A stretch of 64,000 nucleotides of DNA from Antedon mediterranea (Eukaryota; Animalia; Echinodermata), in assembly GCF_964355755.1 (NCBI RefSeq), contig NC_092675.1:27066912-27130911 (forward strand). Direction: 5' to 3'. This document shows positions 1-61,045 of the stretch, in pieces. The notes below the pieces were generated by a model that was not told the origin of the DNA, searched no databases, and saw nothing but the letters and a program-made list of their open reading frames with translations. Every line of letters starts with the position of its first letter. Positions within the stretch are counted from its first letter, which is position 1. Position numbers and translations under genes: made by a program.

Positions 1-3000
1 TTGCTCATCTGTATAGTTTTGTAACCAAACCAACATGTGGCCAATCCGACCACATTTATGCGAGTAGTGAACATATCTTTATGGTCAATTGTATCTAGAT
101 TTCTCATCATATGCATATTCGGTAATGCAGCATCCGTGTGTTTCACATGTATTGCCTAGTGTTTCTAGTCTGGGTGTGTGGGGATTAATGCTCCATTACC
201 ATATGAAAATAAATTTAAAACAATGATACAAATCATAAGACGTTGCTGATGCTTATCTGGGATTATGTTGATTGCAAAGGGCATTATTCCAGAATATATA
301 TCTGAAGAAAACATATAATTATTATTTATCTTTTTCATTTATTCATTTGGTCAAAAACAATTAGAAAATGTATGAGAACCAGATTTCAAGCAATCTATTA
401 GAAATGGGAGTTTAAAACCTTAATTAAAAACAGATCAAAGATTAACATTCGAATACAGTTAGGCCAATTCAAAAATGCATACAATAATAACACGTTTATT
501 TTTCGCGCCGCGGCTCTAGCCAGTTATGTCCCAGGAGGACACATTCATTAATAAGCTGTTTCATAGCGGTAGCTTTAGTATCTAAGACTGACAGTTTTGT
601 GAATTTGGAAACTCGACTATAATTTATAGGTAGCTGCTGGACCCAAAAAACGTCTGGGAGAAGAGAGTCTATATGAAAGCCTTTGCTGATAATACAGTAT
701 TATTGAGATGTAGACGGAAATCTGTAAAATATTGATCAATAAATAATAACTTCGTTTTTGCTGTCAACCAGGCCGGTATTATAATAAGTCACTGTCAAAT
801 AATCATTCGATAATGGTCAAAACTTTATTTTGGCTCTGTCAACATAAAGGGAGGTATTTACAATGACTTTCTTTGACTTTCAATCTAGGCCAATGTTATA
901 ATAATACGCCGTCAGATATTAAATCATTGAAACAGTCCTCGTAAATTTTTTGTTGGTTATCAGATGCCGTGGGGGGTCCAATCAATTATCGTCAGAAGGT
1001 GAACAATCAGTCTACAGCAGATTATTAGGAACGCCTGCTCCATTAATTAATCCAGAAAAAGGTTTGAACATTATCTATTTGTTTATTAGCCTTCTCCTAA
1101 CACAATTATATTTTCTTTAAAAAAAAAGGTTTTATAAGTGGTTTCAACATTTATGATAGTAATGTCACAGTTCTGTGTCTGGACGCAAGTTCATAGACCT
1201 ACTAGTTATATTATTCATATTAACTGATACTTACTCTTCATTTACCGTAAAGTTCAGTTTTAATGAAATATATAATATAAATTGGCTTCGTAACAATTAA
1301 TTAGTTTTGAAAAGGTTAGTTTTTTGGTGATAGGTGAAAATTACATGTAACTTCGTAAACAATTTATTTTTTGTGTATAAAGGCCCAATTACACTATGAC
1401 GATAACGACAGACGATAAATATATAGCATGCATTTTTTTTACATAAACCAAAAGAAATTAGAAAGGTTTTCGTTCTAAAAATAATGTTTTTCAAATTTCA
1501 ATCAAATGACGTCATGATAAATAAAAACAATAAAATCGCTGTATTGTCACGATATTATTGGTCTTACTAATCATGACGTCATTTGATTGGACGTGTGAAA
1601 ATATAATTTTCATCAAAGGAATTGTTTATATTTCTTTTGGTTTATGTATTAAAAATGCACATTTGTCTATTTATCGTCGATCGTTATTGTCCTAGTGTAT
1701 GGGCCTTATGCTGTAAATGTTCAATTAATTGATCATTCCGATTTTATTAGTTTGACTCTTGCACAGTTGCTGTCTAATCGTTGTTGTGTAATATCATTTC
1801 GAACCATATTAAAATCATAAAGAGATTCATATTCCTTAACATGTGGCTGTGCATGGAAGTCTAGTCTACACAAACTCGGCCCCGGGCCTGAAAGTGTTGG
1901 TGAATTCATAATTATACTTAATATTATATATATAAACACAACAGGCATAGAAATAAATTCCAAACCGCCCGGTGATACACTGAAAATTATTTAATTAATT
2001 TTTGAAACGATAAAGATGAGGAAATCTGGGAGTGTTGAAACATTTCAATATTCATTTAAAAAAGTACATTAATTATGGTATTGATCAGTGCCTATAGAGG
2101 CGTAAAAACCCTCGGTCAATATCATGTAAAATGCACTGTGGAAGGGTCATTATTAAGACTGCAAAATTGGGCTTATCAACAAATAAATACTTTCGTTCAA
2201 AATGTAAAATCAAGGCTGAAAAATTGGGCTTATCAACAACAAAATATGTTATTATTAGACGCGATAACATCAAGGATAATCAGTATAATTATTAATATAG
2301 CCACTGTTACTAGTTATTCTACATGCTAAAGTAAATAAAAATCCACTAGAAAACAAGCAAGTCTGAATGTTATGCTTATTAGCCATGTTATGTTTGTTAC
2401 TGTAGGCCTATGATTGTTTGCAATGTCCACATATTATTTCCGTGGGCATATCCATAGTGTATCACTCACAAAAAAGACGTGTGAGGTTCTTTCTTTAAAT
2501 TTTGATGAATGATTTGTGTTACACAAGAGTCAAATGCTCAAGATATTGGCTAACGCCATGGGACCCTTGGCTTATCAATGAATAATAAATATAGTACTAC
2601 TTTCGTTCAATTGAAATCGGAATCTGACCGTTTCATTAAATTGGGTGTGATTAGGCCTAAACATATAATAATTTATTAAAAAGGTACAATAAAAACAAAT
2701 GCATCAGAGGCGTAAAGAACCCACGGTCAATATCATGTAAAATGTATATGGTATAAGCACTGTGGAAGGGGTCATTATTATTAAACTGGAAAATTCGGCT
2801 TATCAACAAATAAATACTTTCGTTTAAAATGTAAAATAAGACTGCAAAATTGGGCTTATCAACAAATAAATACTTTCGTTCAAAATGTAAAATAAGACTG
2901 CACAATTGGGCTTATCAACAAATAAAATACTTTTTTTCAAAATGTAAAATTAAGACTGGAAAATTGGGCTTATAAACAAATAAATACTTTTTTTCAAAAT

Positions 3001-6000
3001 GTAAAATTAAGACTGGAAAATTGGGCTTATAAACAAATAAATACTTCCGTTCAAAATGTAAGAAAACATTTTTTAAATATAATCCTTAAGCTCTGTCTAT
3101 ACTATCAAACTAAATATGATGTGCCCATATTATATAGACATGACGATGTCATATCACTACGATAATCGGGCATATCACTACCATATTTGGGCACATCACA
3201 CTTTTTTTGTTAAACTAGTTGGGACAGTGTAGACACAGAACTATGTGATCGAAACATAAGTCGGAATTGGACTGACGCGATTGATTTAATTGGGTATTTT
3301 TATTAATGTAATGATTCATTAAAAACTATAATACCGATACGCGTTTGGTATTGATCAATGGTGCAAAAAACCCTGAGAAATAATGTTATAACGCGATTTG
3401 GTGATAGCTTAGCAATAATACAACCCATATACTATTATTATAAATACCTATTACAAATCCATTCATATAACTTTTCATCGCGAACCGAAAATGTATAAAT
3501 GTTATTCTACAGACAGTAATTATATATTCAAAAGCCATATTATTATTATTATCAATACCTAAATGCGATAGTAATAACCACATACATTATTCCCAATACA
3601 AATTTGTGCGTTTAATTCTACAGTAGAAAGAAACGACTGTGCTGACAGGCCAATGACATAAATCACAAGTAAAGTCCCAATTGTTCACTTGCGTTTTGAT
3701 TGGCCGACCTATTATATTAGATTAATGAAGACTGTTCTTACAACTGTCCAGTCAAAAAGTTACGCGGCGTTTTTTGTAAGAAATATTTCTTGTTTATTTT
3801 GTAAACTGTTAAAAGTGACGTGAAGTTGGCCAGCAAGAAACGTAACAACAACAATTAAACTGGTTTATTTCCATTGGAAATGTTTAGAATAATTAATTTT
3901 CCATAATACTTGATAGTTTGTTAACATTCTCTTAAGGCAGTAGCGTAGAAGGTACCGTCAATAATTGTTGTTTTAGTTGCAATGAAATTTGCACCACTTT
4001 GTCAGTAAATAATGATTTTGATCACAAACTTTTTTTTAAAGTTCCTTAACATAGAACATTCATAAATAATAGATAAAGCCTACAATATTAAAAATAATGG
4101 TAACAAACACAAACAATACGATAACCTACCTAACAATTTCATAAGAGAGAATTACACATTTTGAAAATATTTATACTAAAATAAATGTTATCCTATATGT
4201 TGCTATCAAACTTTACGCACCTCTATCTACCATCTGTCGCTTTTTCCTTTTCCGTCGAATTAGAAAGAAAGCAATGAGTACAATCAAAATTATAACAACC
4301 AACGGCACACAGATCGCAGCAACTAAGTTAGCACTTGACTTATGTTGTTCAGATGCATGTGGTGGTGATATGTTATTCGTTGATGAAATAGCATAGTCTG
4401 CAGACGTCGATGTTACCAGTGACGTTTTTGTTAATTCTGGTACGAGGGTCGTTGATTGTGACGGTACTGGGCATATATCAGGAGATGCATCTGTAGAAAA
4501 TTTGATCTCATGAAACTTAACAGCAATTTTAATTACAAATGTATGAATTACTATTCAAGAATAGTTACTTAATAAATAATTCAGTTGAATGAAACCAATA
4601 GGTCTCTAAAATTATAAATGTCTATTAATAATAATAATAATAATAATGACGATGACGACGACGACAAATGGGACTTATATAGCGCATTTTGCAAAGCCTC
4701 AATGCGCTTTCAAAAAAAGAAATAAAAAGCGGAAACTAGGAGAAAAAAGGTGATTTTTCAGAGCCTTAAAATAAGCGATTTGAAGTAGCCCGACGGATAG
4801 AGATGAAAATAAACCGTTTCAAAGGGCGACAGAGGCCAAAGAAAAGGAACGAAAACCATAATACTTTGTGGTCGGATTGATGGGAATGAGCAAGTAGAGA
4901 CTCTGAAATAGATTGCAAACATCTCTTAGGAACATGGATGAATAAATTACCGCAGGCCTTAAAAACCAGTTCGAAGCTTACCGTATGTTGTGATGCAATT
5001 CAAATTGGCCTGGGCTACTACCGCAAAGATTTCATAAATGCCACAATTAGAAAACTAATTAAATTATATCAATAAGAGGTTTTAGACTAAAATAGTGGAA
5101 ATTACACTGGACCATCGCCCATCAAACAAAGTACTACGTAGCTCCAAGCTGCCCATTGTATATGTTAATCGCAATTGATAGTCCTAGTTCAATTTCGGTG
5201 CATATCCTGTTTGCATATCACATGTTTTCAATTTATTTTTGGATAATTTTTATTATTTAGGCCTAAATAATGATTTTAATTTGTTATCGTCATAAAAGTA
5301 GTTCAAGGAAAATTATTAGTAAATATATATAATTTAATATAGGGGCCTAAATAATAAGTTTATGCTAAATGTATTACTCTGTCTTTAAATTGTTCGATTG
5401 TGTGGTTAACAAGTACGCGTACGAGTACGCTACTTGAAAGATATCTCTTAATTGTTGTTATTATTTGACAATATCTGGACTTTTATTTGGTGTTGAACTC
5501 ATAGTGATAAACAAGGAACTCATATAAAAGGAAAGTACACTTTTTATTACAGAACCCATTGTTAGATCCAAGTGATTTAGACCTTCAACGCCTAGGCCCA
5601 CGGATAGAAAAAAAGTTGTACCATACGATCTATACAGGGTTAGTTTGGCCCTTTTCATTGCTGGGACCTCAAACGATCGTACCGCGTCTTTTCTGCCTTC
5701 TAATCGGCCAATCAGTGCGAGGCGTCGTTGTGCTAGGCAACAGTACTTTCTATTGTCTTCTTTTGTCCATTGAAATCGTACAAATACCACTGCATAGCGA
5801 AATCGCTAATGCAACAATGCAACACATAGCAATGGCTGACAAACTAATTAAATCTAAGAAAACTAAAAAGAAAAAGGTTTATGCTGTTGCTGTCGGGAAA
5901 CAACCAGGTATCTATTTATCCTGGCTGGAATGCCAAGCAAATACTGATGGCTATCACGGAGCTTTATTCCAATCATTTTTAGTGTTGAAAAAGCCGAAAA

Positions 6001-9000
6001 ATATCTCCGCGAAAATGGGGTGTGCAATGACTTAGAATGTACTGATGCAACTAAAGTCAATGATGCTGAAGTGGAACTACCTTTAGTAAATACAGCTATT
6101 GAAAGTAACAAAATAGATACTGAATGTAATGATACATTACATGACCTGGTTACCACTGATGTAAATGACCTTCAAAACATCCATTCCGCTTGCACTCAAT
6201 CACATTTTGATCACTCATTAGCTTCTCCAAATCTATCTGATTTGCTAAAAGAAAACTTCGAACTCAAAATTAAAATGTCTGAAAATGAAAATAGAGTCCT
6301 GAAAGATAAATTACTAGCTAAAAACAATGATTGTGCTATTTTGGTTGAAGCTGTAAAAGATATTCGATGTGAGCTTAATGAATTTAAAAAAGAGGTTAAA
6401 TCCCTACAAGAAAATAGAAAATTCAAACAGAATATGAATATTAAATTCGAAGCTCTTAAGTCCGATGTAACACAATTGCAGCATACTTTACAACTTTTGC
6501 AGCAAAAAGATAAGGAAGTGACAAAACTACACGATCTACTTATCTCCGCTCATAAAGATGCTGCTAAAGCCAAAGATGAAGCATACGATGCGAAAATAAC
6601 CTAAGTTGCTATTGACACATCTGACTTTATTACTGTGAAGGGGCATAGTGTTACACAACATAAAACCTGTCCCAAACTTGGTCTGCACGATAGATGTTCC
6701 TCTCCTCAAGAACAGTCTATACATCTGACCTCATTGGACCTCCCGAAACAAAATCGGTCTAATGCAGAACCAAATTGTGACAGTAAAGCTATCGATGATT
6801 CTCGGACTTATTCTGAGCAGCTAATTGACACTCTATATAACGCATTGGACACTCTATATAACGCATTGGACACGACTAGCCCTACTAATGATGTAACGAA
6901 GAGTACTGGAAAAGTTGATTCTTATCAACTACAGCTTCATCAATACCGTAATATAAACAAAGTACTAAGCGACACACAAACAATTTCTGATAAAACTGCT
7001 AGTACTCAAGATTACACAATTCCAGCTGACGTTCTGATTATTGGTGATGCAATGATTAAACATCTTCGTCCCCAACGATTAAGTAATTCTACTGAAAAAA
7101 GGGTGATATGCCACACTATGCGTGGTGCAAAAATAGAAGACCTCGCGCATTGTGCCAAGCGTCTTGCAGTAAAACATGGTGTTGAAAGAGTGATTGTTCA
7201 TGTGGGAACTAACAATAGAAATGACAGTTCAGACACTTTGACCTAAAAAACGACATCTCTGTGTGAAACCTTGAAGCCAATAAAGTGCACAGTTTCCTCC
7301 ATCATACACCGACGCAACCAGATGCGATGATGTAGAGAGAGCAAATCACCATATGAAACTCATATGCAAAGAGAATGGCTGGGGATTTATTGATAATACA
7401 AATATTCCATTCATGAAACTATCTTCTGATGGAGTTCATCTTAGCCCACGAGGAACAAGTACTCTGGCGAAGAACATTATTGATCACATAAGTAGTGAGT
7501 CGGCGATGAGTCCACCTCCGTCATCTTTTCTGCTCTCAAATCAGTACCAACCAATTCGTCAGAGAGAATGCGTCAATCATCAACAGGGGACTATAAAAAT
7601 CGGTGCAAGAAAAGATCCACGAAAACCTACCCACAAAAATTAAATTCAAATTCTGCAAATTCGTCACTTATATTTTGTTTGCTAAATGCTCGTTCATTGC
7701 GTAACAAAAGTGATGAATTCACAGACTTTGTTGTTAGTAATGACATTGATATCGTGTCTGTGTCTGAAACATGGCTTCGACCTGATGACAACCTCTCCAT
7801 TGGAAACATAACTCCACTAGGATATTGTTTCAAACATGTTCCTAGATTGGATAAAATCGGTAGAGGGGTTGGAATTTTATTTAAATCTAGTCTAAGTGTT
7901 AATATGAAAAATGATGTTAATGCTTATTCTTCATTTGAATCAATACATTTACAGTTTACATTAAGTTCAAACACAATTTATATTGTATGCATCTTTAGAC
8001 CACCGAGTTTGTCTGTCACCGACTTTCTTAATAAATTTGAAAATATGATTTTTGATTATCTCATTATTCCATCAGAAGTAATTTTTTGTGGTGATTTTAA
8101 TATCCACATTGATAAAAATGAGAATATCGCTGCAAATAAATTTAATCGTCTATTGCAGTCTTTCAATCTTATACAGCATGTAAATGAACCTACGCATGAT
8201 GGTGGTCATTGTCTTGATCTTATTATTACTAGAGATGTTTCTCTGATCTCGGGGATCACTGTAAAACCGGGTATCTCTGATAATTTTCTATTCTTTGTAG
8301 TCTCAACTTCAAGAAACCACCTCTTCCTAAATCGAAAATTAAAATCCGAAATATAAACAGTATTGATACAACAATATTTTCAAATGACATACAAGCTCGG
8401 TTGTCTGATATGCATGATGGTACTTTGCAAGAAAATATTGAAAGATACTGTTCTTTAAGAGAAGTTATGGATAAACATGCACCTTTAAAAACAAAATGTA
8501 TCAAACTAAATTCTTCAAAACCGTGGTATACTGATGAAATTAGATCTGCGAGAAAACTCCGTCGCGTATTTGAGAGAAGATGGATGAAATCAAAAAATAC
8601 CTTAGATAGACAGAAATATTGTCATCAGCGGTGTATTGTTAATGCTTGTTGAAAGTGCTAAGAAACGATATTATTCTGATCTGGTCGAAGATTGCTCAGG
8701 TGATCAGAAGAAGCTGTTTAAAGTTGTAAACAATCTTTTTCACCGTTCTAAATCGTCGGTGCTTCCATTTTCTCACTCAGATGAGTTGCTTGCAGAAAGA
8801 TTTTCCGTATTTTTTAAAAATAAAATTGTTAATATTCGTAAACTTCTTGTTAAAGATAGTGCTGGAAGTTTGTCTCATTACTTTAATAACGACGTATGCT
8901 GTGAAAAGTATAATTGTCCCTCCCTTTGTAAATTTGAACCTGCAAGTGAAAAAGAAATTTCTGAAATTGTCAAAAACTCGCCTGCTAAATTTGGCAGTCT

Positions 9001-12000
9001 TGATCCAGTTCCTACTCTGTTAATTAAGAGAAATGCTGTTGTTTTTGTTCCACTAATTACACGTGTCGTTAATCTGTCTTTGGAAACTGAGGTTTTCCCA
9101 GATTTTTGTAAAATCTCGCACATACGTCCTCAATTAAAGAAATCGGGTCTTGATCCTGAAAAGCTATCCAATTACATACAGACCAGTATCAAATCTGTGT
9201 TTTCTTGGAAAAGTAATTGAAAAAGTGGTATCTAAACGTATACTATCACATGTAAAGGATAATTCTTTACTTGATCCGTTTCAATCAGCGTATAAAGCAC
9301 ATCACAGTACTGAAACTGCACTGCTGCGCGTTAGCAATGATATACTTCGTGCGATGGATGTTGGAAAAGTAACTGCTTTAATTTTACTTGATTTGAGTGC
9401 TGCGTTTGATACGGTAGATCATAGTATTCTGATTGAGAGGTTGCATGCTTCTATTGGTGTTGAGGGATGTGTACTAAGATGGTGTAAATCATACTTGGCG
9501 GACAGACCTCAACAGATTTGTATTAGAGAGGTAATCTCTCAACCTACCACTTTTAATTTCTCTGTTCCGCAAGGATCTGTGTTAGGTCCGCAATTGTTTA
9601 CAATGTATATCCTATTCGGGATATCATTAAGAAATATAATCTTAGCTATCATGTTTACGCTGATGACACTCAGATATATATATCGTTTAAACCTACCATG
9701 ACACAGAGTGAATTATCAATTGATTTGCTTGAAAAATGTATCTCTGAAATTCGTGTCTGTATGGCCAAAAACTTTTTAAAACTTAATGATGATAAGATGA
9801 ATACATTCTATTTGGTTCGCAACAACAATTAGAGAAAATTGCATCTAGGAGGGTTTCCATTGGTAATTTTTGTACTAAAAATACTACACAAGTTAGAAAT
9901 CTTGGTGTAATTCTGGATTCTAATATGACAATGACGGCTTATATTTCTAAAATTACGTCTGCATCGTCATATCATTTAAGAAATATTCGAGGCATCAGAA
10001 AATACTTAAATCGTGCAGCTGCTGAGCAACTTGTACATGCATTTGTTAGTTCGCGTCTCGATATGTGTAACTCCTTGTTATTTGGTCTCCCACAAAAACA
10101 ACTCCACAGGCTTCAGCTGATTCAAAATACAGCGGCACGAGTTGTTAAAAAAACTACCAAGATATGCACACATATCAAATACCTTGGAAACGTTGCATTG
10201 GCTTCCTGTTGGTACCGCATTGTTTTAAAAATATTACTTTAAGTTTTTAAGTCTATTAATGGCATGGCTCCTGAATATATTTCTGACATGCTTAGGCTGT
10301 ATGTTCCCAGACGGAATCTGCGTTCTAGTGATACGCTGCTTCTACATCAACCTAAGTCTCACCACTCATGGGGAGACAGAGCTTTCACCGTTACTGCTCC
10401 TCGTCTATGGAATGCTCTACCGAGCTCTATCAGATTTTGCAAAACTGTTAGAGCTCGGTAAAAAATTATTAAAAACACATTTATTCATTAAGGCATATGG
10501 AAATAATGAGGTTTCTTAAAGTTCTAGAATTTTATAGTATACTTTTTCCTGACCAGCATTATCTTTGGGGTGCCTCTGTCTTGGTTGTTGTCTCTGAACA
10601 CCCAGTCGTCTGTGGCAAGGCAAATGTGTATCCTGCTCCTTTGTTTGGTCACCTAGGTAGGGGTCCGGGACCGCGACAGAACGAGAACGGAGGGGGACCC
10701 TCCAAAGAAATTGCATTTTATTTGTCAGGCATTTGTATGATTTGTTTTTATTTTTTTTTTTATGCGCCTTGAGCACTCTTGAGTGGTATGTGCGCTATAA
10801 AAATCCTGTTATTATTATTATTATTATTATTAAACATTAGCAGCGGGTATTCAAAATATAATCTTAAATCACTGGTCAATCTTTGTAACATTTGTTTGTA
10901 AATTACTGACGTCGGATTCATATGTATGGCAGGCATTCAATATGTAATCGTAGACAATCTTATTTAAAATGTTGCCAAATCATATAATATATAGGCTTAA
11001 CATAAAATTATTAATGACCGGTTTGTTTTGTAATTTGTGTTATTCATTGCTTCGAATAGTGTGTAGTTACTGTAAATACTGGTTGTAACAATTGTTTTTT
11101 CGCGCCGCGGCTCTAGCCAGCTATGTCCCAGGAGGACACATTCATTAATAAGCTGTTTCATAGCGGTAGCTTTAGTATCTAAGGCTGACAGTTTTGTGAA
11201 TTTGGAAACTCGACTATAATTTATAGGTAGCTGCTGGACCCAAAAAACGTCTGGGAGAAGAGAGTCTATATGAAAGCCTTTGCTGATAATACAGTATTAT
11301 TGAGATGTAGACGAAAATCTGTAAAATCTTGATCAATAAATAATAACTTCGTTTTTGCTGTCAACCAGGGCGGTATTATAATAAGTCACTGTCAAATAAT
11401 CATTCGATAATGGTCAAAACTTTATTTTGGCTCTGTCAACATAAAGAGAGGTATTTACAATGACTTTCTTTGACTTTCAATCTAGGCCAATGTTATAATA
11501 ATACGCCGTCAGATATTAAATCATTGAAACAGTCCTCGTAAATTTTTTGTTGGTTATCAGATGCCGTGGGGGGTCCAATCAATTATCGTCAGAAGGTGAA
11601 CAATCAGTCTACAGAAGATTATTAGGAACGCCTGCTCCATTAATTAATCCAGAAAAAGGTTTGAACATTATCTATTTGTTTATTAGCCTTCTCCTAACAC
11701 AATTATATTTTCTTTAAAAAAAAGGTTTTATAAGTGGTTTCAACATTTAGTAATGTCACAGTTCTGTGTCTGGACGCAAGTTCATAGACCTACTAGTTAT
11801 AATTATTCATTTTAACTGATACTTACTCTTCATTTACCGTAAAGTTCAGTTTTAATGAAATATATAATATAAATTGGCTTCGTAACAATTAATTAGTTTT
11901 GAAAAGGTTAGTTTTTTGGTGATAGGTGAAAATGACATGTAACTTCGTAATCAATTTATTTTTTTTGTATAAAGGCCCAATTACACTATGACGATAACGA

Positions 12001-43300: not shown

Positions 43301-43778
43301 TCATACACGTTGACCTTTATATTCTTTACATAGGTATACAAATTGTATCGATACACAAACGTAATCATAAAAATGTCAGAAAGAAAATCAACCATTCATT
43401 TTACATTTGAGAATATTAAATGATAGTATGAAGACTTGTTGTTGTCGTACAGAATGTAGACCTATTTACATACATAATACTGTCAATAATGTGCCCTGAT
43501 AGAAAGCTCAATAAACAACGGTGATGTGTTCGTTCCATCGTGTCAACTAGTAGACCTAGACAATACCTATACACATAACTTTTTATTTTTTATTCGAGGG
43601 TTATTCCAAACGAATATTATCTTTTCTAAAATCAACACTATTTCGATCCGCCCATTTGTGTGGGCAAAAGCGTAGCTAATGGCATGATTGATAATACTTA
43701 CGGAGGACATGTTGCACCACTACATCTTGTTAGCATGCATATTACTGAGACACATTTCAGCCATTGTAAGCTATGCAT
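40371..43778 (-). CDS. CTLD-like receptor paralogue F, ITIM/ITSM tail (~381 aa)
   Basis: Exons 43702-43778 (MHSLQWLKCVSVICMLTRCSGATCP), 42682-42779, 41836-42186, 41183-41461, 40371-40711 (ELYQLI x2, TLYHDT/TLYHDI, terminal ISYIEL). Confidence 0.88.
42370..42445. repeat. 18-bp minisatellite (TTTTACGGATTTGACGCA-like) x4
   Basis: Direct tandem units visible in intron 2 of F. Confidence 0.75.
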
Positions 43779-50048: not shown

Positions 50049-50145
50049 GTTCTTCCTGTGTAAAAAGAAATTAAAAACATTCCAATATAGTGTTCCAGTT
50101 ATTTTTGTGTATTTCATTGAAACAGGAATTTAATCGGTTACCACC

Positions 50146-50284
50146 TTTTTAGTCGCGTGCAATGCGACTCTACAGCTGACTATGTCGGTCGGTCGGTCAG
50201 TCGGTCGGTCGGTTTGTCAGGTTTGTCGGTAAACACTAACTCAAATTTTAGCACGCGACTGAAGCCAACTATAATGGCCTTGTT
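50146..50284 (+). mobile_element. Miniature HINE/DINE-1-like element (~140 bp)
   Basis: TTTTT-AGTCGCGTGC subTIR with 5' IR, (GTCG)n microsatellite, inverted GCACGCGACT, GCCA..TGGC hairpin, CTTGTT end. Confidence 0.7.
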
Positions 50285-51484
50285 AAGGAAGCCTAGCACT
50301 TTTTACTTTCTTGTGACCACGTGTCTTTCGCTTTACCCTTTTTGTTTAGAAGTTATATTAAACGAGGTATCAAAAACTAAAAAGTACAATTTTTGTTAAA
50401 TCACAATTTATTTAACATCGTTAATTATTATGGTATCTTTCTTATAATCTGAATTGTGTACAATAGGCTTAGCATTACACTCATAATACAGTTGTTATTT
50501 TTCTTTCAAATTTATTTAACCAAAAACTCCATAATAACATATTTATTTTTAAAATACATCATTTTTAGTTTGTGTTTTCAGAAAGGCTATTTTACTTATA
50601 TGCGTAATATTTTAGAAATAGAAGCCAGCGATTTAAGCAGTAATAATTAAAATGTATCTATATTATTAATTGTAAAACAAGAATTTTACTAAAATAATAT
50701 ATATATATAATATATACAGTATCATAATCCTTTTTTTCAATTTAAACTTTTTGAAAACAAAATTTAGCTACATTAAAAACAGCATCACATTTATATTAAG
50801 CTTAGTAACAAATAATTCACAAAAAGAGATGCTATCCTATTTCACATGATTAGATCAGAAAGAGCATATAAAAAGAAATTCGATCGTTTCGATTTTTTTT
50901 GTCGCCTTCAGAAAAAATCCTATAGCGTCAAGACTACTCATGAAAAATGGCGGTAAAATACATGATTAAAATCTTTCTTGTTAAACTATCTTATTTTTGT
51001 TCTTATTTGTGTTCGAGTAGAGAGGCTATAAACTCAGGGGAGGAAATATCCTCCAATTTCACCAAGAAAAAAAGGATGAAATGAAAAAGATGAATGCGAA
51101 GTTTGAAATTTAGATATTTAGAATGATAGCAAGAAATGATATATTTAATGAAAACCGTAAGGTTAGAGTCCATACACTGTGCAAGTCCAAGATGCGATTT
51201 TGGGCTCTGTCCGTATGTGAGACGCTTCATACCTGATGTTATCGTAGTACAACTACTACTTACAATTTGTATTTATAGTATAAAATATTGCAAATATAGA
51301 AAAATATATTGAACAAATACAAATACATACAGATTACATTGAAATATTTACGATATAAAATATTGAAAATATAGAAAAATATATATATTGAACAAATAAC
51401 AATACAGATTATATTGGCATTCCATCAATTATATTGCATCACCAAACACATTAAATGATTCATGAAGCGGGATCTCATATACAC

Positions 51485-51932
51485 TGTCACGAACTCCTCT
51501 TACGTATGTTTCCGAGCGGTTGAAAATACTTTAGGAACTCCCTTGTGACATAAAAGTATACACACAAAATCCACAAAGTTGTAAAATAACTCAAAAACAA
51601 AGCTTTAATTTCAATCAACTTCAACTTTTAACAATCCAGTAAGCACTTTAAACAACAGCTTCACAATGACTTTACAATATAACATCCAACCTCTAATCCA
51701 ACAACCTTACAATAGTTTACATCCCTTTATATACAAGATGCTCCCATCCTTCTAGATCATTCTTTATACTTCTCATTATTACATGATTACAGTTTCTATT
51801 AATAGCACTTCTGGAATGTTCTTGATTGTTCTTATTAATTATACATGGTTTATTAAATCAAAACATCTTATTCTAGAATGTTCATGTAAATACTATGTTA
51901 CTCTATATGTTAGGGAATGGTAATTTATTACA
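51485..51932 (-). repeat. 3' LTR
   Basis: Direct repeat of 57066-57513; adjacent to the polypurine tract. Confidence 0.97.
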
Positions 51933-52159
51933 CTCCCCCCTCTTTCTGAGCTCAAAACTCTTTCTTGGAGTTTTGAGGGGCAAGTATACACGGACGTGGC
52001 AAAATATAACATTTTCGTCCTATAAACCTGTTTAATATATGTATATAAATTCAAACTACATTACGTGAAAACCAAATTCTCATTACAAACAAAATGTAAG
52101 AAACAAGTAACTTATAAACATTAAAACCTATTTTGTCTATTTGTAAAGTAACCCTTGCT

Positions 52160-55100
52160 TTAAGTTAATGGTTTTCGTGACAATCCGTCAGCATTACCAT
52201 TAGAAATACCCCTTCTATGTACAACAGTAAAGCAATAAGGTTGTAAATCAAGACTCCATCTAGTTAGTCTTTTGTTTGTCTCTTTCATTTCAACCAACCA
52301 TTTGAGTGGTTGATGGTCAGTAACTATCTTAAATTTTCTGCCTAGTAGATAATATCGCAGACTTTCGACAGCCCATTTTATAGCTAAACACTCTTTCTCT
52401 ATAGTTGCATAATTCTGTTCTCTTGGGAACATCTTACGACTAAGATACAATACTGGATGGTCAGTACCATCAGGACCTAGTTGACTAAGTACTGCACCTA
52501 ACCCTCGATCTGACGCATCTGTTTGCAGTATAAACTCTGCATTAAAATCTGGGTTTCGTAACACAGGGTCTGAACATAACGCCTGTTTTAACTTTACAAG
52601 TGCATCTTCGCACTCAGGCGTCCATTTGATTTTATCTGGATGTTTTTTCCCCGTCAGATCAGTTAGAGGTGCTGCAATGTCAGCATAATTAGGAATAAAC
52701 TTTCGGTAGTATCCTGTCAGGCCAAGAAAAGATTTAACATCCTTCTTAGTTTTAGGGTTTTCCCATTGTACTACCGCTTCTACCTTAGTCTTTTGAGGAC
52801 GTATCATTCCCTCTCCAACTACATACCCTAAATAATGCACTTTACTATGTGCGAAACTACATTTTGCAGGTTTGACTGTCAGATTAGCTTGCTTGAGGGT
52901 CTGAAAAATGTCCCTAAGATGATGGATATGGCTTTCCCAGTCTGGACTAAATATTACCAGATCATCCATATAAGCTGCTGCATAAGATTCTTTCTTGCGC
53001 AACAGTTGATCCATCATTCTTTGAAACGTTGCAGGAGCCCCATGCAAGCCAAATGGTAAATACTTAAATTGGTACAAACCCATTGGTGTTGAAAAAGCTG
53101 TATATGGTTTTGACCGTTCAGTTAATGGAACCTGCCAGTAACCTTTACATAAATCTAACTTCGTTATAAATTTAGCAGGACCAACCCTGCCTATTATTTC
53201 ATCTATTCGAGGCATTGGATATGCATCAAACTTGCTCAAGCTATTCACTTTTTTGTAATTTACGCAAAAGCGAGCTGTACCGTCCGGCTTTGGTACCATG
53301 ATATAAGGAGAGGACCAGGGACTGTGAGACTCTTCTATTACCCCAAGTTCCAACATAGATTCTATCTCTTCTTTTACTTTGCCTAACTTAGCCTGAGGAA
53401 TTGGATAAGCTCTTAATCTAACTGGGTGTACCCCTAGGTTCATTTCAATATCATGCTTTATTACAGTAGTTTTCCCTGGCTTGTCCTGTAACACTGAGTC
53501 AAATTCAGAAAACACCTCCGCTAAATCTGAAAGCTGAGATTCATCTAGTCCTTCACCAGAATCTAAGGTTAAATTGGAACTAGAAATATTTGACCAAGAA
53601 ATGTCCTTATCCTGACCCTCGTCTTGTCCAGTTACATCATTTATAGCCAGCATAACCTCAATAGTTCTACGATGAAATTGTTTTAAAAGATTTATGTGGT
53701 AGACTTTTGACTTTTTCCGTTTATCATTAGTTTCCACCTCATAGTTTACTGGACCTAGTTTCCTTAAAACCTTGTAAGGACCTTGCCATTTTGCCTCTAA
53801 TGCATCGTTACTAGATGGTAAGAGTAATAGGACTTCATCACCTGGACTAAATTCTCTACAAACAGATTTCTGATCATATTTTTGTTTTTGCCTTGTTTGG
53901 GATAGTTCAATGTTTTCCTGGACTAGATCTTTCATTGAAGTTAATCTATCTCTCATTTTAACAACGTGTGAAACCACACTTTGAGGACCTGTCACCGTGC
54001 CTGTCCACATTTCTTTCATTATATCAAGTGGACCTCGTACCTTCCAACCATACAATAATTCAAATGGAGAGAACCCAGTTGACTCCTGCGGTACCTCCCT
54101 ATAAGCAAATAATAGGTACGGAAGCAATTTATCCCATTCTCGGGGATCATCCTGAACAAATTTTCTAATCATAGCCTTGAGGGTGCCATTAAATCTTTCC
54201 ACTAATCCATCGGTTTGTGGATGGTAGGGAGAAGTAGTCAAGCCCTTAATTGAAAGTAACTTATAAATTTGACTCAACAACTTAGAGGTAAAGTTAGAGC
54301 CTTGATCGGTTAAAATTTCTGTTGGTACCCCTACCCTGGAAAATAATTTAATCAACTCATCCGCTATCTTTGGAGCTTCAATACTTCTCAGTGGGATAGC
54401 CTCCGGATATCGAGTTGCATAATCACATATAACCAAGACATATTTATTTCCTGTCTTACTCCGTGCTAGTGGACCAACAATGTCCATAGCGATTCGGCGG
54501 AATGGTTCACTGATTATTGGCATAGGAATCATCGGGGCCTTCAATTTAGTTTTATACTTTGAAGTTTTCTGACAATTTTCACAAGTGTTGCAATATTCGG
54601 TCACATCCTTTCTAATACCAGGCCAAAAGAATCTCTGCTTTATCCTATCTAATGTCTTTTTCCTACCTAAATGACCTGCCAAAGGAATATCATGTGAGAC
54701 TTTCAATACACTATTACGGCAAGGGTATGGAACTACTAATTGCTCTATTGGTTCTGTCTGGTGTTTAGTGAAAACCTGCCTAAATAAAATTCCATCCTTA
54801 CAGACTATCTTTATAGTGTCATCATCCTTCTGTACTAACATCTGTTCTCGAAGTGAAATTAAAGTTCTATCCTTAACCTGATAATCCTTAATTTTATCTC
54901 TGCCAATATCTAAAATGTCTAATTCACTATCTTGGCTAGATTGAGCTTCCTTTGTTTTTGCAAACTCTTTCCTAACTTTTCGTTTCTCACTTCTGGTTTT
55001 ATGAACTTTTTCCTTGGGAGGGTTGTTACTGAGTAGTTGGCCATCTAAATGTCCAAATTCTTCTTGAAAATTAATCACATCATCTAACTGATGTGAAATA

Positions 55101-56734
55101 ACCCCAGAAGCTTTTTCCGACTTTAATTCGTTTTCCTCTCTTAGTTTTTCTTTTCTAGCATGATCTCTAGTGGCAACAAAACTATGCCTATCATGATTCT
55201 TATCCCTCTTCCCTAATAAGTCTCCAAATTTAGGAAAGTCCCTACCAAGAATTACATCTCTTGGTAAATCGCTGCAAACGCCAACCAACAAATTATGGTC
55301 TTCGTTATTAATCTTAATATTGACGAATGCAGTAGGATAGGCTTGGACATGGTCATGGACGCACCTGCATGTAATTTTAGCTTGCTCCGCGCGATTAATT
55401 TTCTTAGCCGCTACTAAATCAGAATGAACAAGTGTCATATCACATCCAGAGTCTATCAAAATTTCACAATCACACCCTTCAACTAGGCCTCTACAAATGT
55501 AAGGTGTACATGGTTTTGAAACAGTATCTGTCTTTGTCGACAAAAAGCCATCCTTACTTCGACAAAATCGTTCTATGTGGCCTACTTTTTTGCACCGTCT
55601 ACAAACGAGAGGTTGTCTAGCGTCAGATTGTGATTTATGAAAGTTATCAGGGGGATTATTATTACCCTTACTGTCAACTTCAGGAGTGCCTTTCACTGTT
55701 TTCTCCTGGTTGTTTCTATTTTCGTGTTTTCTATTTTGAAACTTTTTCTCAAAATCGATACCTTTTCTAGCTTGAAAATAATTATCTGCTAATTCTGCAG
55801 CATTTAATCCAGAATCTGGTTTATGTTCTTTAACCCAAATTTGTACCCCTGTGGGCATAATATCTATTAATTGCTCTAAAATAACAATTTCAGCTAAATC
55901 ATCTTTGCTTTTATCAGCAGGTCTAGCCCACTTAGTAAATAAATCTTTTAACCTAACATACATTTCTCTATAACTTTCTTCACTTTTCTTTTTAATTGAC
56001 CTAAACCTTTGCCTATATGTCTCTTCAGTTATGTCATACCTTTGTAATATTGCTTTCTTCACTATGTCGTACTGGTTACTTTCTGTCACTGGTAGTGATG
56101 CATAGGCTGCTCTTGCTTTGCCTGTCAAATGAGGTATTAGTTTTACTACCCAGTGTTCTTTTCGCCACTCATAGGTGTTAGCAATTCGTTCAAACGTAGT
56201 GAGATAATTTTCAATATCATCACTATCAGAAAGTTTTGCAATCTGAACTTCCTTCAATCTCATCATGTCTTTTAATCGTTTCTCCTCACTGTCCTTTTGC
56301 TTATCCATTAACGCCATTACTAACGCTTGCTGTTTCTCCATATCTTCCCTACGTAAACGTTCTTGTCTTTCCATATCTTCTTTGCGTAAACGTTCTTGTG
56401 TTTCCATATCTTCTTTGCGTAAACGTTCTTGTTTTTCCATATCTTCTTTGCGTAAACGTTCTTGTTGTTCCATCATCTGCTGCATCATAAGATTCTGTTG
56501 TTGCATTTGCTGCTGCATTTGCTGCTGCATTTGCTGCTGCATTTGCTGCTGCATCAACAACAAAACATCTTTTGAAGATGAGTCAGCCCCTGTAGGGTTA
56601 TGTCCACTGGTTGGTCCAGACTCTTCTGCCTGTTGTTCAGGTTGTACTGATTGAACTGATTCTACATCCGAATCAGTTTCATCGCCACCGCTGTATTCTC
56701 TACCGGATCTTGTTGTTGATTGTTTATCAGCCAT
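52160..56734 (-). CDS. Gag-Pol polyprotein (SCAN-like capsid, CCHC knuckle, protease, integrase, RT, RNase H), 1524 aa
   Basis: YRQRFR..LEQL..WVKEHKP; CRRCKKVGHIERFC; LIDSG; H..LAGH..C..C, IAMDIVGP, TDQGSNF, GLVERFN; LDLCKGYWQ, YMDD; QTDAS, EKECLA, NADGLSR. Uninterrupted ORF. Confidence 0.97.
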   Translation of the reverse strand: MADKQSTTRSGREYSGGDETDSDVESVQSVQPEQQAEESGPTSGHNPTGADSSSKDVLLLMQQQMQQQMQQQMQQQMQQQNLMMQQMMEQQERLRKEDMEKQERLRKEDMETQERLRKEDMERQERLRREDMEKQQALVMALMDKQKDSEEKRLKDMMRLKEVQIAKLSDSDDIENYLTTFERIANTYEWRKEHWVVKLIPHLTGKARAAYASLPVTESNQYDIVKKAILQRYDITEETYRQRFRSIKKKSEESYREMYVRLKDLFTKWARPADKSKDDLAEIVILEQLIDIMPTGVQIWVKEHKPDSGLNAAELADNYFQARKGIDFEKKFQNRKHENRNNQEKTVKGTPEVDSKGNNNPPDNFHKSQSDARQPLVCRRCKKVGHIERFCRSKDGFLSTKTDTVSKPCTPYICRGLVEGCDCEILIDSGCDMTLVHSDLVAAKKINRAEQAKITCRCVHDHVQAYPTAFVNIKINNEDHNLLVGVCSDLPRDVILGRDFPKFGDLLGKRDKNHDRHSFVATRDHARKEKLREENELKSEKASGVISHQLDDVINFQEEFGHLDGQLLSNNPPKEKVHKTRSEKRKVRKEFAKTKEAQSSQDSELDILDIGRDKIKDYQVKDRTLISLREQMLVQKDDDTIKIVCKDGILFRQVFTKHQTEPIEQLVVPYPCRNSVLKVSHDIPLAGHLGRKKTLDRIKQRFFWPGIRKDVTEYCNTCENCQKTSKYKTKLKAPMIPMPIISEPFRRIAMDIVGPLARSKTGNKYVLVICDYATRYPEAIPLRSIEAPKIADELIKLFSRVGVPTEILTDQGSNFTSKLLSQIYKLLSIKGLTTSPYHPQTDGLVERFNGTLKAMIRKFVQDDPREWDKLLPYLLFAYREVPQESTGFSPFELLYGWKVRGPLDIMKEMWTGTVTGPQSVVSHVVKMRDRLTSMKDLVQENIELSQTRQKQKYDQKSVCREFSPGDEVLLLLPSSNDALEAKWQGPYKVLRKLGPVNYEVETNDKRKKSKVYHINLLKQFHRRTIEVMLAINDVTGQDEGQDKDISWSNISSSNLTLDSGEGLDESQLSDLAEVFSEFDSVLQDKPGKTTVIKHDIEMNLGVHPVRLRAYPIPQAKLGKVKEEIESMLELGVIEESHSPWSSPYIMVPKPDGTARFCVNYKKVNSLSKFDAYPMPRIDEIIGRVGPAKFITKLDLCKGYWQVPLTERSKPYTAFSTPMGLYQFKYLPFGLHGAPATFQRMMDQLLRKKESYAAAYMDDLVIFSPDWESHIHHLRDIFQTLKQANLTVKPAKCSFAHSKVHYLGYVVGEGMIRPQKTKVEAVVQWENPKTKKDVKSFLGLTGYYRKFIPNYADIAAPLTDLTGKKHPDKIKWTPECEDALVKLKQALCSDPVLRNPDFNAEFILQTDASDRGLGAVLSQLGPDGTDHPVLYLSRKMFPREQNYATIEKECLAIKWAVESLRYYLLGRKFKIVTDHQPLKWLVEMKETNKRLTRWSLDLQPYCFTVVHRRGISNGNADGLSRKPLT

Positions 56735-57065
56735 ATTTTAAATCTGGATGAGGGTCTTGTTACTAGTTAATCGTAGTTACCGAGACGTTCACAAGTCTAC
56801 TGTTCCAAATAAATAATGTACTGTTCTTAAAACAATGTTTGTGTACTTACGATTAAACAAAACGTAGCACTGCGGCTTCCGTAAAATATCACAGTATCGT
56901 AAGTACCGCTTTCACAAAATATCAATAAAGTACAGTTGATCCTAAACAGCCACCAATCTATGGCAAAATACAGTAGATCAAACTGCTACCACAAAATATC
57001 ACAACCGTAGATAAATACACAGTTAAGTCGAACAGTAGATCGAAATAACCGCTGCCACCAAATTA

Positions 57066-57513
57066 TGTCACGAACTCCTCTTACGTATGTTTCCGAGCGG
57101 TTGAAAATACTTTAGGAACTCCCTTGTGACATAAAAGTATACACACAAAATCCACAAAGTTGTAAAATAACTCAAAAACAAAGCTTTAATTTCAATCAAC
57201 TTCAACTTTTAACAATCCAGTAAGCACTTTAAACAACAGCTTCACAATGACTTTACAATATAACATCCAACCTCTAATCCAACAACCTTACAATAGTTTA
57301 CATCCCTTTATATACAAGATGCTCCTATCCTTCTAGATCATTCTTTATACTTCTCATTATTACATGATTACAGTTTCTATTAATAGCACTTCTGGAATGT
57401 TCTTGATTGTTCTTATTAATTATACATGGTTTATTAAATCAAAACATCTTATTCTAGAATGTTCATGTAAATATTATGTTACTCTATATGTTAGGGAATG
57501 GTAATTTATTACA
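57066..57513 (-). repeat. 5' LTR
   Basis: Direct repeat of 51485-51932; adjacent to the PBS. Confidence 0.97.
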
Positions 57514-57899
57514 ACACATACATTTGAATAATTGTCATCTTAAAAGGTATAACTGATGCCTAAAAACAGAGTTTACGTTAATATACAGGATTTGTGTCCA
57601 TTATGATAAGGTAAGAAAATAAAAAGGAATCAATAAAATAATTAAATTATTACCATCAAGTCTTTTGATAGTTTTAATAGTTTATCTTTTAAATCATTCG
57701 TCCATTTCTTCTGAGCCTTATGTAAATTATGCATAAATTCGTTTGTTAATAAATGCTTTAATTCATAGCAAAATAGTCTCCAAATTATTTTTTATTCCTG
57801 ATTTTGTTTCTTTTCTTTTCTTATTACTAAACACGATTTATAAATGCAAAAAGTAAATATTGAAGTAAGTTCATTTACTGTTTTCGTTTCCGATCCTTT

Positions 57900-58273
57900 A
57901 ACAATATTACGCCATGTTATATCAAACTTTTTCTACAAAACAGTTCGAGATCAAAAACTTAAATACAATCCATATGGGTTTAATCTCATTACATGAAAAT
58001 AACAAATATTTTTCATTTTTAATTTCATTACATCTTTCACATATGTCATATATAGAAAGATTCCAAATTTGTAGCTTACTTTTACACGCAAGAATGTGCG
58101 ATGTAGTAGTTTGAAATTGAATTGCGCAACTTTTGTGATATGTTGCATAGAAAACACCTTGTTCAAAAAGTGTAATTTTGAAATTCTATCTCCCATTTTC
58201 TTTGTGCTATAGGAGTTGATATTACATTTTCCACAAATAAATTATAAAGTAGTTTTGCATTAAGTAAAAGCAA
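57900..58273 (-). mobile_element. Degenerate L1/Tx1-type LINE ORF2 C-terminal fragment
   Basis: KVAQFNFKLLHR, then in another frame ENEKYLLFSCNEIKPIW, resembling the L1 zf-RVT C-terminal region. Confidence 0.45.
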
Positions 58274-61045
58274 AGCAAATTGTTTGGTGAATTCGTAAAT
58301 GAATTCGCGTTGCTAACAGTGGTACTAACATGTGTTGTTAGATCTAATCGTGCCGTTGTTAGATCCAATCGTGGCGTTGTTAGATCCAATCGTGACGTTG
58401 TTAGATCCAATCGTGACGTTGTCATTTCTGTCGTCAATTGGCATATTCCAGGAGTTAACTCTATAATAAAGTTTAGATATTTCAATAATGAGTGATAAGT
58501 CATTCACTTCTTGCTTGGTCGGACAAGTAAACATTTAATGTAAGGTAATAATCTGACAATAGTTGGAAATTGATAATAATCATATGCATTACTACCCAAA
58601 CAAGTTAAGATTTTATAAGCCAGAGTATGATATTCTCATTAAACGCCATCAATATGTTTTATTTTAATCAATCGTGGTATGTTCAGTTTTTTTTAATAGA
58701 CAGTAGGCCTACATATATTGTTTCCTTTTCTATATTATTTTCATGGACGTAATAATAGCAGCAACAATCCATATTAAGCCTACTCGTTCAATATAATAGA
58801 TGCATTAGCTATTTTCACTTGGTCAGAAAAAGTTAACGTTGTTAGTTGGGTATGCATGTAATAATATTGTAAACACGTTGTTAATACTCACCAGTAGATT
58901 CACAGATAATGGTGTTTATCTTATCAGTTGCTGAACAGTCCATGTTTTCACTATTTACGGTATTTGAAAATGTTCCATCATACACATTGATTATTGCGCA
59001 TCCCTTGTTGAGATTTTTCTGGGGTAGTTCTGATTCTACATGGACATTAATTATACTACGAGAATAGATATGAAGAACATCTAAAACGTTATCTATTAAT
59101 TGATCGTATTCATCAACACTATTTATAACAGTAATGTTCCCGCCAATCATTTCGCATTCCCGTTGAACATCAATACACGATCTTTGTTGATTGCTCACTC
59201 TTTTAAATGTATAGCAGTTAGGGTTGCTGTATACGGTTCTAACTGCAAACAAACACAACATTACACTGACAATTAGGCCTACCGAAACATCAAAATGCAA
59301 TAAGTATCGTTAATAATTAATTTAACCGCTATTTAAACTGTTGTCTTATATTCTCAGACTCATGCCCTTAACAATTTTGGCTATTTGACTCGTTTTAACG
59401 GATTTGACTCGTTTTAACTGATTTGACTCGTTTTAATTGATTTGACTCGTTTTAACTGATTTAACTCGTGTTAACTGATTTGACTCGTGTTAACTGATTT
59501 GACTCGTTTATTCTAATTGTATTATCATCACGTATTACATGTTTGTTTCTGTAACTTTCTCTTTTGTATTGTTTCCCTTTTATGTACTGTGTTTTTAGCA
59601 ATTAAAGTACATTAGTTAATCAATAAATAAAGCTTATCACTGTAGCACCTGTATCTTGCGTTCGTCCTTCTGGATCTTGGATTTTCCATCCTCCATTTTC
59701 AGGGTATATCAGGGAGCAATTATTCACATCTGAACAATCAAAACCACTGTAAAACACAAATAAATAAAATTAATGAATAAGAGATTTAATTTCGAACTTT
59801 GCGAATGGCCCGTTGTTTCGTTTATCTTTATAAATACAAATACATAGGTCTATATAAAATCATGTTGTATCTGTTTTAGAAGAAACTCGACCAATAGAAA
59901 CATTCATAAACTTAAAAAAACAGAATCATATATCATATCAATTAATATTAAGTGCTAACTTTCAGTATTTCGTGTTTAAGTTTCAACAATCCAAAGTTAG
60001 CTTGGTCAAGACAGTGGAAATCGGCAAAGGTTCAGGCCACACTTGCTCCATGGTTCTGGTAGTAGATCAAGATCTCGGATATGGTCCAGTGTACACAAAA
60101 TGCTCACGTGCACTTTAAAGTACCTATATCTTTCGAGACGAGTATAGACCCCCTTTTATGGTTCAAACAGCCATTACTTTAAAAGTAGGCCTTCTTGTAA
60201 TCCGTAATAATCAATTTCTTGATTGAACTTACGACGATGAAGATAAATAACTAATATTACGGAAGTTATTGCAGTAACTTAGTTTTAGCGTTTTTTCCAT
60301 TATTATTATGTTTTCTTTATCTTTAAGAATTACTATTACTGTTATTATGAAAAAATGTCAACGAAGAATTCAACCATTCATTTTATGTTTGAGAATATTA
60401 AATGTTAGTATGAAGACTTGTTGTCGTACAGAATGTAGATCTAGATTTACATACATAATACTGTCAATAATGTGCCCTGATGGAAAGCTCAATAAACACG
60501 GTGATGTTCCATCATGTTAACTAGTAGGTCTATACACACCTACAAACACAATTATATATATGTTTTTATTCGACGGTTATTCTAAACGAATATTATCGTT
60601 TGTAAAATCAACACTATTTCGATCCATCTAGGCCTGTTTGTGTGCGTAAAAGAATAGCCAATGGCCAATGGCCAATGTAAATAGGTTGGGTAATCATCAG
60701 GAATAGTCCTGAACAGGGAGATGAGCGCCCCTGCCCACCGATGAGTTTCGGGATCCCTTTGACCCGGAGGGAGGGTCCCTACCAAGGGTTACAGGTCCCA
60801 GGTTTTTAGTTGTTTTTAAAATTAATTAGTGTTCCATGACCTTCTCATCAAAATTAACGTCTCTCATTGTTGTGCTATGTCAACATAATGTCAATGACGG
60901 CGAAATGTCTCCAATAATGGGTATAGCATGCAAACAAGTAATAAGTAAGTAAGTTTGATAATACTTACGGAGGACATGTTGCACCACTCCATGTTATTAA
61001 CATGCATATTACCGAGACACATTTCAGCCATTGTGAGCTGTGCAT
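58222..61045 (-). CDS. Paralogue H: close relative of F lacking TM and tail (putative secreted CTLD protein, ~254 aa, or pseudogene)
   Basis: Exons 60969-61045 (MHSSQWLKCVSVICMLITWSGATCP), 59649-59746, 58892-59242, 58222-58460 (ELTPGICQL, four TT[SPA]RLDL units, FTNSPNNLL, then foreign CFYLMQNYFIIYLWKM*). Confidence 0.7.
59383..59510. repeat. 19-bp minisatellite (ATTTGACTCGTTTTAACTG) x~6.5
   Basis: Direct tandem units in intron 2 of H. Confidence 0.85.

Follow-up and report, generated by a model that had tools for sequence, protein, structure and literature searches.

The window analysed here is a 64,000-nt stretch of the genome of the crinoid Antedon mediterranea (NCBI RefSeq assembly GCF_964355755.1, contig NC_092675.1, positions 27,066,912 to 27,130,911 of the forward strand). 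Within 61 kb it carries eight head-to-tail loci, A to H, all on the minus strand, which were delineated by self-comparison, six-frame reading and exon splicing. They code, intact or damaged, for predicted cell-surface receptors built on a CTLD (C-type-lectin-like domain), and apparently represent a real, undescribed crinoid family and a new scaffold for a known receptor design. The exon order per locus is signal exon, mini-exon of 95-98 nt, CTLD exon of 339-360 nt, stalk/transmembrane (TM) exon and tail exon. Exon profiles matched seven signal exons and a weak eighth (that of G, E 0.009), seven mini-exons, seven CTLD exons, eight stalk/TM exons and six tail exons in the window. Every modelled intron has GT-AG ends, and the intron phases are 2-1-1-1 in B to F and 2-1-1 in A and H as far as the models reach. 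A preliminary description of this DNA had proposed eight minus-strand paralogues with one exon and phase scheme and divergent ectodomains; exon homology indeed extends to all eight, the phases are common to the seven CTLD-bearing loci, and the CTLD exons of the window are 39-74% identical. Reading frames are open in six of the eight loci (A, B, D, E, F and G, the tail of A lying beyond the window), and C and H are damaged.

Gene A (4221..18231) comprises a signal exon (18231-18134), a mini-exon (15805-15708), a CTLD exon (14810-14472) and a stalk/TM exon (4490-4221); its tail exon lies outside the left edge of the window, and the RefSeq protein P0006 shows this tail to be of a short class with no ITIM (immunoreceptor tyrosine-based inhibitory motif). 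Gene B (19462..23222) is open over exons 23222-23107, 21619-21522, 21214-20858, 20768-20547 and 20324-19462. A remnant, partial copy of a mini-exon lies at 21475-21434 (minus strand), just downstream of the B mini-exon (E 2e-4). Gene D (29479..33940; exons 33940-33870, 32662-32568, 32050-31700, 31301-30918 and 30269-29479) is open with a long tail, gene E (34829..39271; exons 39271-39204, 38411-38317, 36366-36013, 35393-35181 and 35001-34829) is open with a short one, and gene F (40371..43778; exons 43778-43702, 42779-42682, 42186-41836, 41461-41183 and 40711-40371) is open as well. The model of D agrees with RefSeq P0004 over its whole length, and A, C and F agree with P0006, P0003 and P0009, respectively, over the shared length; all four are labelled as Antedon mediterranea 'uncharacterized protein'.

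The mini-exon and the large exon together are predicted to encode a single remodelled CTLD. The AlphaFold predicted local distance difference test score was 84.5 for the CTLD exon of F and 84-98 per block over residues 31-180 of A. Every row among the Foldseek matches listed was a CTLD (best E 2e-4), the rows of a VIA fold search were nearly all CTLDs (Z 8.9, root-mean-square deviation (rmsd) 3.0, 93 aligned), and immunoglobulin (Ig) or other folds were not among the fold-search matches listed. Over residues 28-180, the model of A matches complete CTLDs (Z 8.2; rmsd 4.3; 107 aligned), so that the mini-exon would supply the N-terminal strands of the same domain; the preliminary description had listed it as a Cys/Trp mini-exon beside the CTLD, but a separate domain was rejected, and the Atlas yielded no usable family for it. 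The fold check proposed there thus returned a CTLD, with middling scores: the two helices and beta core are present in the predicted models, and a three-strand insert seems to precede helix 1 in the full model of A. Ten Cys lie at matching places in all six ectodomains checked. C29, C81, C102 and C113, at alpha1/last-strand and loop positions, are invariant, as putative disulfide partners, in all seven window exons, and the loop Cys is missing in some distant family members.

The remodelled domain, with its predicted beta-meander insert and short loop region, escapes Pfam. Lectin_C matched one exon of seven (E, at E 0.008, under the cut-off) and was absent among the 25 families shown for 26 family proteins, and matches to TMEM154, RIFIN and the like were dropped as generic stalk/TM matches. 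Atlas features scored 0.92 to Lectin_C clusters, and the family profile matches CLEC4C, CD93 and CD302 weakly, over the N-terminal half. EPN or QPD plus WND are the motifs of the Ca2+-dependent carbohydrate-recognition domain (CRD) of C-type lectins. Neither WIGL nor EPN/QPD was found in any of the six heads checked, and the single WND, in D, stands at non-canonical spacing. A Ca-dependent lectin was rejected on the absence of EPN/QPD, and the prediction for the head is a remodelled CTLD that is likely Ca-independent. With an N-terminal signal and a C-terminal tail the proteins are predicted to be type I, and their stalks are mucin-like (S/T/P 36-48%).

The tails fall into two classes, long and short, each of which aligns across Antedon and Anneissia. 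The long class has a conserved series of Tyr motifs (6-7 YxxL/I, 2-3 YxN and a C-terminal acidic YxxL), and the short class has a C-terminal Tyr-hydrophobic motif. Tyr residues number 17 in the tail exon of B and 12 in that of D, both counted at ten or more in the preliminary description, and 4, 5 and 6 in those of E, F and G, respectively. Yxx[LIV] occurs above shuffles in all seven long tails (p 0.015 or less). The C-termini read SYYTDV in E, ISYIEL in F, SYYLDV in G and STYDCL in B, and the ITIM consensus is present in E, F and G and in long-tailed B, where the same C-terminus also resembles a hemITAM, the half form of the ITAM (immunoreceptor tyrosine-based activation motif). The C-terminal motifs of B, D, P0019, P0010, P0008 and P0007 have two of the three acidic residues of a hemITAM, and ITAM spacing was found in three Anneissia proteins only. 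The long tail of B contains an internal duplication of 68 aa, and the short-class tail of F, which ends in its ITIM consensus, one of 48 aa. Tail Tyr motifs have been gained in this way by in-frame duplication of 204 nt in B (19788-20192) and 144 nt in F (40435-40701). In Anneissia P0033 a long repeat, with pairs of YxxL at ITAM spacing, occurs about four times in the tail.

Heads and tails do not share one history. On a CTLD tree of 15 core rows, chosen because their tail is complete and of one or the other class (which excludes C, G, H and the distant members), long-tail members as a clade were rejected (approximately unbiased test, p-AU 1.4e-5), and the tail-class label changes six times, against a shuffled mean of 5.1. 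Since the tail classes do not group on the ectodomain tree, the modules appear to have been reshuffled, and several sequence comparisons point to exon-level recombination of tails among heads. First, short-tailed P0005 and long-tailed P0019 and P0010 are 91% identical around the TM and 67-68% in the CTLD but less than 20% in the tail. Second, the tails of A and P0005 are 96% identical and their CTLDs 54%. Third, the tails of C and D differ at 92 of 439 positions in the 5′ part and at 19 of 349 in the 3′ part (0 of 1000 permutations as extreme), so that the 3′ half looks like a tract such as conversion would give.

Three loci depart from the common plan. Gene C (24552..28424; exons 28424-28351, 27465-27371, 27168-26809, 26531-26160 and 25359-24552) has a long tail like that of D, which an insertion of 5 nt near 25255 truncates. 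Apart from the insertion the tail is 86% identical to that of D, and a different frame stays open as far as the stop shared with D. The frameshift site is spanned with no gaps by a DNA contig of run X1, which excludes an assembly slip. C does have a truncated tail, as had been described, but a designed truncated form was rejected because the cause is a frameshift in an otherwise D-like tail, and the gene is best read from its sequence as a recent loss-of-tail allele or young pseudogene. Gene G (45362..48122) is the CTLD-less form that it had been taken for. Its frame is intact and consists of its own signal exon (48122-48025), a 32-nt exon (46251-46220), a Pro/Thr-rich mucin-like stalk with an F-like TM (46054-45644) and a short tail (45552-45362). 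A search with short tails matched F and P0002 only, and found no RefSeq model of E or G.

Locus H (58222..61045) has a signal exon (61045-60969), a mini-exon (59746-59649), a CTLD exon (59242-58892) and a stalk exon from 58460, which resembles that of F up to about 58280 and then passes into an unrelated broken open reading frame (ORF). This fragment (57514..58280, minus strand), with no Pfam match under E 0.1, is likely the 3′ end of what we take, from motif likeness, to be a retrotransposon without long terminal repeats (LTRs). A gypsy-type LTR retrotransposon (51485..57513, minus strand) follows between H and its former 3′ end; its ORF (56737-52160; 1525 aa) has SCAN, protease, reverse transcriptase (RT), RNase H and integrase domains, its LTRs are identical at 446 of 448 positions, and a 4-bp target duplication flanks it, all of which suggests a very recent, intact-looking element. 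An F-like remnant of a 3′ untranslated region at 50749..50943 (minus strand; 75% identity over 212 nt) likely represents what was once the 3′ end of H. Neither the TM half nor the tail of H is present in the window. H is likely a transposon-broken pseudogene; the TM-less form of the preliminary description, and with it a soluble or decoy product, had to be given up, as the stalk exon is broken, the TM half and tail are lost, and nothing indicates a secreted product.

The family has so far been seen in two crinoids. Searching 1.84 billion representatives with a 7-sequence profile yielded 60 matches, 23 of which cover the domain (one of them only half); all 23 are Antedon or Anneissia proteins. 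Among the remaining 37, the three that were looked up proved to be CTLD proteins of generic type from nematodes or fish. Neither this search nor two word-based ones found the family in other echinoderms, and a search with a 26-protein alignment gained nothing further. As far as these searches show, the family is lineage-specific; Antedon has at least 17 loci of it and Anneissia about 18. The extent of the array beyond the window is taken from RefSeq proteins: 16 Antedon loci (the eight of the window and eight more in RefSeq) belong to a single 31.7-Mb contig, provided that the window is part of it, as its four RefSeq matches indicate. A tree of 32 heads shows species-specific expansions (nine Antedon rows, 95/91), its bootstrap being not fully settled, and one 1:1 orthologue pair across species (99/98). 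The members of this pair, P0028 of Antedon and P0025 of Anneissia, have very long tails rich in YxxP (8 and 12, respectively), and are a candidate for a conserved framework member with a third output type. Anneissia P0001 has two CTLD-stalk-TM-tail units in a single chain, likely an annotation merger of two tandem genes. No published description of this family was found in the literature searched, although subscription papers and supplements (e.g., the gene-family tables of PMC7351957) could mention it, and no paper was found on crinoid, CTLD, transmembrane and tyrosine together.

Gene D is transcribed and spliced as modelled, per one 837-nt contig of the probable RNA run X5. The contig skips 31301-31700 and 30268-30917 with CT..AC ends, and the D mini-exon is a loose end in it; the junction check proposed earlier was thus answered at two modelled junctions. 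X5 is only guessed to be RNA, and the argument rests on its splice joints, not on coverage. The splice-junction evidence covers gene D; for E, one X5 contig match begins at the tail acceptor, 35001. A RefSeq isoform of D, P0018, uses another first-exon frame and donor (33974-33663, minus strand), and its N-terminus has no clear signal peptide.

Lectins of the natural killer (NK) complex are type II proteins. Their group V receptors share with the crinoid family a CTLD fold without sugar motifs, yet the crinoid proteins are predicted to be type I. CD93/thrombomodulin (group XIV) and CD302 are among the best sequence and fold matches and, like the crinoid family, are type I with a stalk; however, the matches are weak and by sequence cover the generic N-terminal half, the crinoid family has no Sushi or EGF domain, and no sign of orthology to either was seen. 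Closer in layout are the fester co-receptors (FcoR) of Botryllus schlosseri, clustered type I receptors with ITIM, hemITAM-like and YxxI/L/V motifs and with Ig-like and Sushi domains (PMC12582321; this and the other papers cited are drawn on for their accessible parts). Ectodomain and tail trees disagree in both systems (through intergenic recombination in FcoR), and birth-and-death with framework genes is common to both (PMC12582321). The partners of FcoR are FF genes, and genetics supports a role of FcoR in allorecognition (PMC12582321), whereas the crinoid family has a single CTLD-fold head, and no partner gene was seen. Hydractinia Alr1 and Alr2 are likewise tandem type I genes with single-exon Tyr tails, ambiguous ITAM/ITIM readings and pseudogenes nearby (bioRxiv 10.1101/2022.03.25.485889); they differ in their Ig ectodomains, very high allelic polymorphism and homophilic allele-specific binding. 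FcoR and Alr follow the same logic on Ig scaffolds.

Vertebrate paired receptors (Ly49, NKR-P1, CD94/NKG2, KIR, LILR and PILR) are recognised by a gene cluster and by related ectodomains with different tails, both of which are found in the crinoid family (PMC3533184). An ITIM in the inhibitory members, expression in immune cells and opposite signalling also belong to their definition (PMC3533184). Their activating members have a short tail and a charged TM residue, or an ITAM (PMC3533184), neither of which is seen in the window array; the crinoid long tails instead bear many Tyr motifs directly. The oyster CgCLec-HTM and CgCLec-TM1 are transmembrane C-type lectins with a Tyr tail that signal through Syk (PMC13027682). 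Compared by description only, these are single receptors with a lipopolysaccharide-binding CRD and a hemITAM, unlike the crinoid family, which is large, has a degenerate head and two classes of tail, and shows no more than hemITAM-like motifs. In the accessible part of a 2026 review of sea-cucumber immunity (PMC13673367), ITAM, ITIM and Syk are unmentioned; PMC514892 and PMC8278520 were further papers for comparison. By analogy, the crinoid family would work most like FcoR, Alr and vertebrate paired receptors, yet it is a member of none of these groups, as its predicted head is not an Ig fold, its predicted topology is not type II and charged TM residues are absent.

The gene structures, the two tail classes in two crinoids, the mosaic modules, gene birth and death and the splicing of D are established, and the sequences support a genomic pattern (clustered, lineage-specific, with contrasting Tyr tails, birth-and-death and module swapping) that is that of immune receptor clusters. 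We hold with moderate confidence that this undescribed family works, by analogy, like clustered immune tyrosine-motif receptors. Fast-diverging, remodelled CTLD-fold heads would be coupled to one of two old Tyr-rich tails, as type I immune-type sensors. The heads may bind protein or other non-Ca-dependent surface ligands, because EPN/QPD is absent and the loop region is short. After ligand clustering, Src-type kinases would phosphorylate the tails, as general motif biology suggests; long tails would then dock Syk, Grb2 and other Src homology 2 (SH2) proteins and drive a response, whereas for short tails, with their ITIM-like motif at the C-terminus, recruitment of phosphatases and damping of the response would be more likely. 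Through unequal crossing-over and conversion, heads would be joined to new outputs again and again, with C, H and perhaps the shortened tail of A as by-products of this turnover. As for the analogous system on type I CTLDs inferred in the preliminary description, its core is plausible and is strengthened by the module swapping; an undescribed clustered family with two tail classes is supported, and the soluble, truncated, activating and allorecognition parts are not.

Several observations weigh against an immune reading of the family. The fold scores are middling (template-modelling score about 0.5; Z 8-9). The ITIM contrast between tails holds in part only: E, F and G carry the consensus as described, but so do long-tailed B, P0019 and P0010, and it is missing from A and P0005, which are short-tailed. 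When the tails of B, E, F and G are shuffled, one ITIM match appears by chance in 19-28% of cases, and if I/L/V is required at -2 (PMC12582321), only F fits. No ITAM occurs in any window tail, a canonical hemITAM ([DE][DE][DE]xYxxL) in none of 33 proteins and a charged TM residue in none of 30 credible TM helices, so classical activating members find no support. Motifs of the YxxL/V type also double as sorting signals. To these are added the codon-model and allele results given below.

The absence of ITAM and of an adaptor-binding TM residue also suits a non-immune role in adhesion, sensing or uptake (particle or chemical sensing by feeding podia, gamete contact or regeneration), in which the Tyr motifs would serve general SH2 signalling or endocytosis and the expansion would reflect ligand diversity outside immunity. 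The mucin-like stalks, the non-robust selection signal and the conserved orthologue pair with YxxP-rich tails are in line with such a role, and crinoid CTLD proteins also serve in the skeleton (PMC7351957). Those skeletal lectins are not described as Tyr-tailed receptors in the accessible part of that paper, however, and species-specific turnover, pseudogenes and reshuffling of two tail classes among heads are more typical of immune clusters, as the FcoR parallel illustrates. We regard the non-immune role as a real possibility, though clearly a less probable one. Somewhat more doubtful still is the most elaborate immune version, a crinoid NK-complex-like system in which diversifying type I CTLD heads receive, by reshuffling, either long activating tails (hemITAM-like/Grb2) or short inhibitory ones (ITIM), the head-less mucin G acts as a modulator, and a balanced self/non-self read-out would arise in echinoderm immune cells, convergent with vertebrate paired receptors and Botryllus FcoR.

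Selection on the heads was assessed by pairwise comparison and by codon models. Pairwise ratios of nonsynonymous to synonymous substitution rates (dN/dS) of the CTLD range from 0.2 to 1.2; the overall omega is 0.52, and the CTLD core is under purifying selection (omega 0.36-0.52). A positive class is strong on 142 codons (site models, M8 vs M8a p 4e-8), but the signal is gone in four stricter subsets: without columns near gaps (91 codons, p 0.14), with only the CTLD exon (p 1), after removal of C and H (p 0.5) and in a further subset at p 0.09. The signal comes from loops rich in indels and may be either genuine or produced by the alignment, and recombination breaks the assumptions of codon models. 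Positive selection is therefore not robust, and the dN/dS check did not bear out ectodomains that evolve fast by diversifying selection. About half of the codons fit omega 1 in M1a, as they would in a largely neutral, decaying tandem array of a few functional receptors and drifting redundant copies, whose tail contrasts would be duplication accidents. Damage to two of the eight loci, several transposon insertions and the near-neutral differences of D described below fit this picture too. It is nevertheless unlikely, in view of the constrained CTLD core, the retention of the ten Cys, the presence in two species of both tail classes with conserved Tyr motifs, the six open frames of eight and the splicing of D.

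A second form of D in run X5, an allele or an unassembled paralogue, differs from the window at 12 of 353 positions in the CTLD (3.4%), 9 of 385 in the stalk (2.3%), 7 of 490 in the tail (1.4%) and 7 of 316 in a piece of intron (2.2%). The head of D is thus no clear polymorphism hotspot, on one second allele at one of eight loci. Among 25 differences classified in three exons, with three more CTLD differences unlisted, 20 are non-synonymous and 5 silent, which is about the neutral ratio (939 to 273 sites); the ratio is highest in stalk and tail, and the CTLD has 6 non-synonymous and 3 silent among 9 listed of 12. The ectodomain polymorphism expected of an allorecognition locus was therefore not borne out by this allele. 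An allorecognition complex like Hydractinia Alr or Botryllus FF/FcoR, with polymorphic heads that read self alleles, could draw on the FcoR-like clustering of type I receptors and reshuffling of their Tyr tails, on the mostly non-synonymous differences of D, and on the rejection of allografts by holothurians (PMC13673367). Yet the ratio of non-synonymous to silent differences is near neutral and highest outside the CTLD, and the Ig fold is absent. We consider such a complex very unlikely. Crinoids are, to our knowledge, solitary, with no natural fusion.

Vertebrates, Botryllus and Hydractinia are known to have receptor clusters with contrasting Tyr motifs, most of them built on Ig or type II lectin scaffolds; in the literature searched, none was found for crinoids. 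If the immune reading of the crinoid family is true, another independent origin of that design would have occurred, on a remodelled type I CTLD, in this class of echinoderms. Crinoid immunity has barely been studied, and the family offers concrete tails and heads to test.

Several repeats lie in the introns of gene A. A frameshifted long interspersed nuclear element with endonuclease and RT pieces occupies about 5500-10300 (plus strand) inside the third intron, and an ORF upstream of it encodes an RNase H1 N-terminal (Cauli_VI) domain (E 2e-14). Two different introns of A hold copies, 97% identical, of a segment of 3.3 kb, at 499-3795 and 11096-14420; this may be the footprint of a crossover that joined the head of A to the TM and tail of a neighbour.

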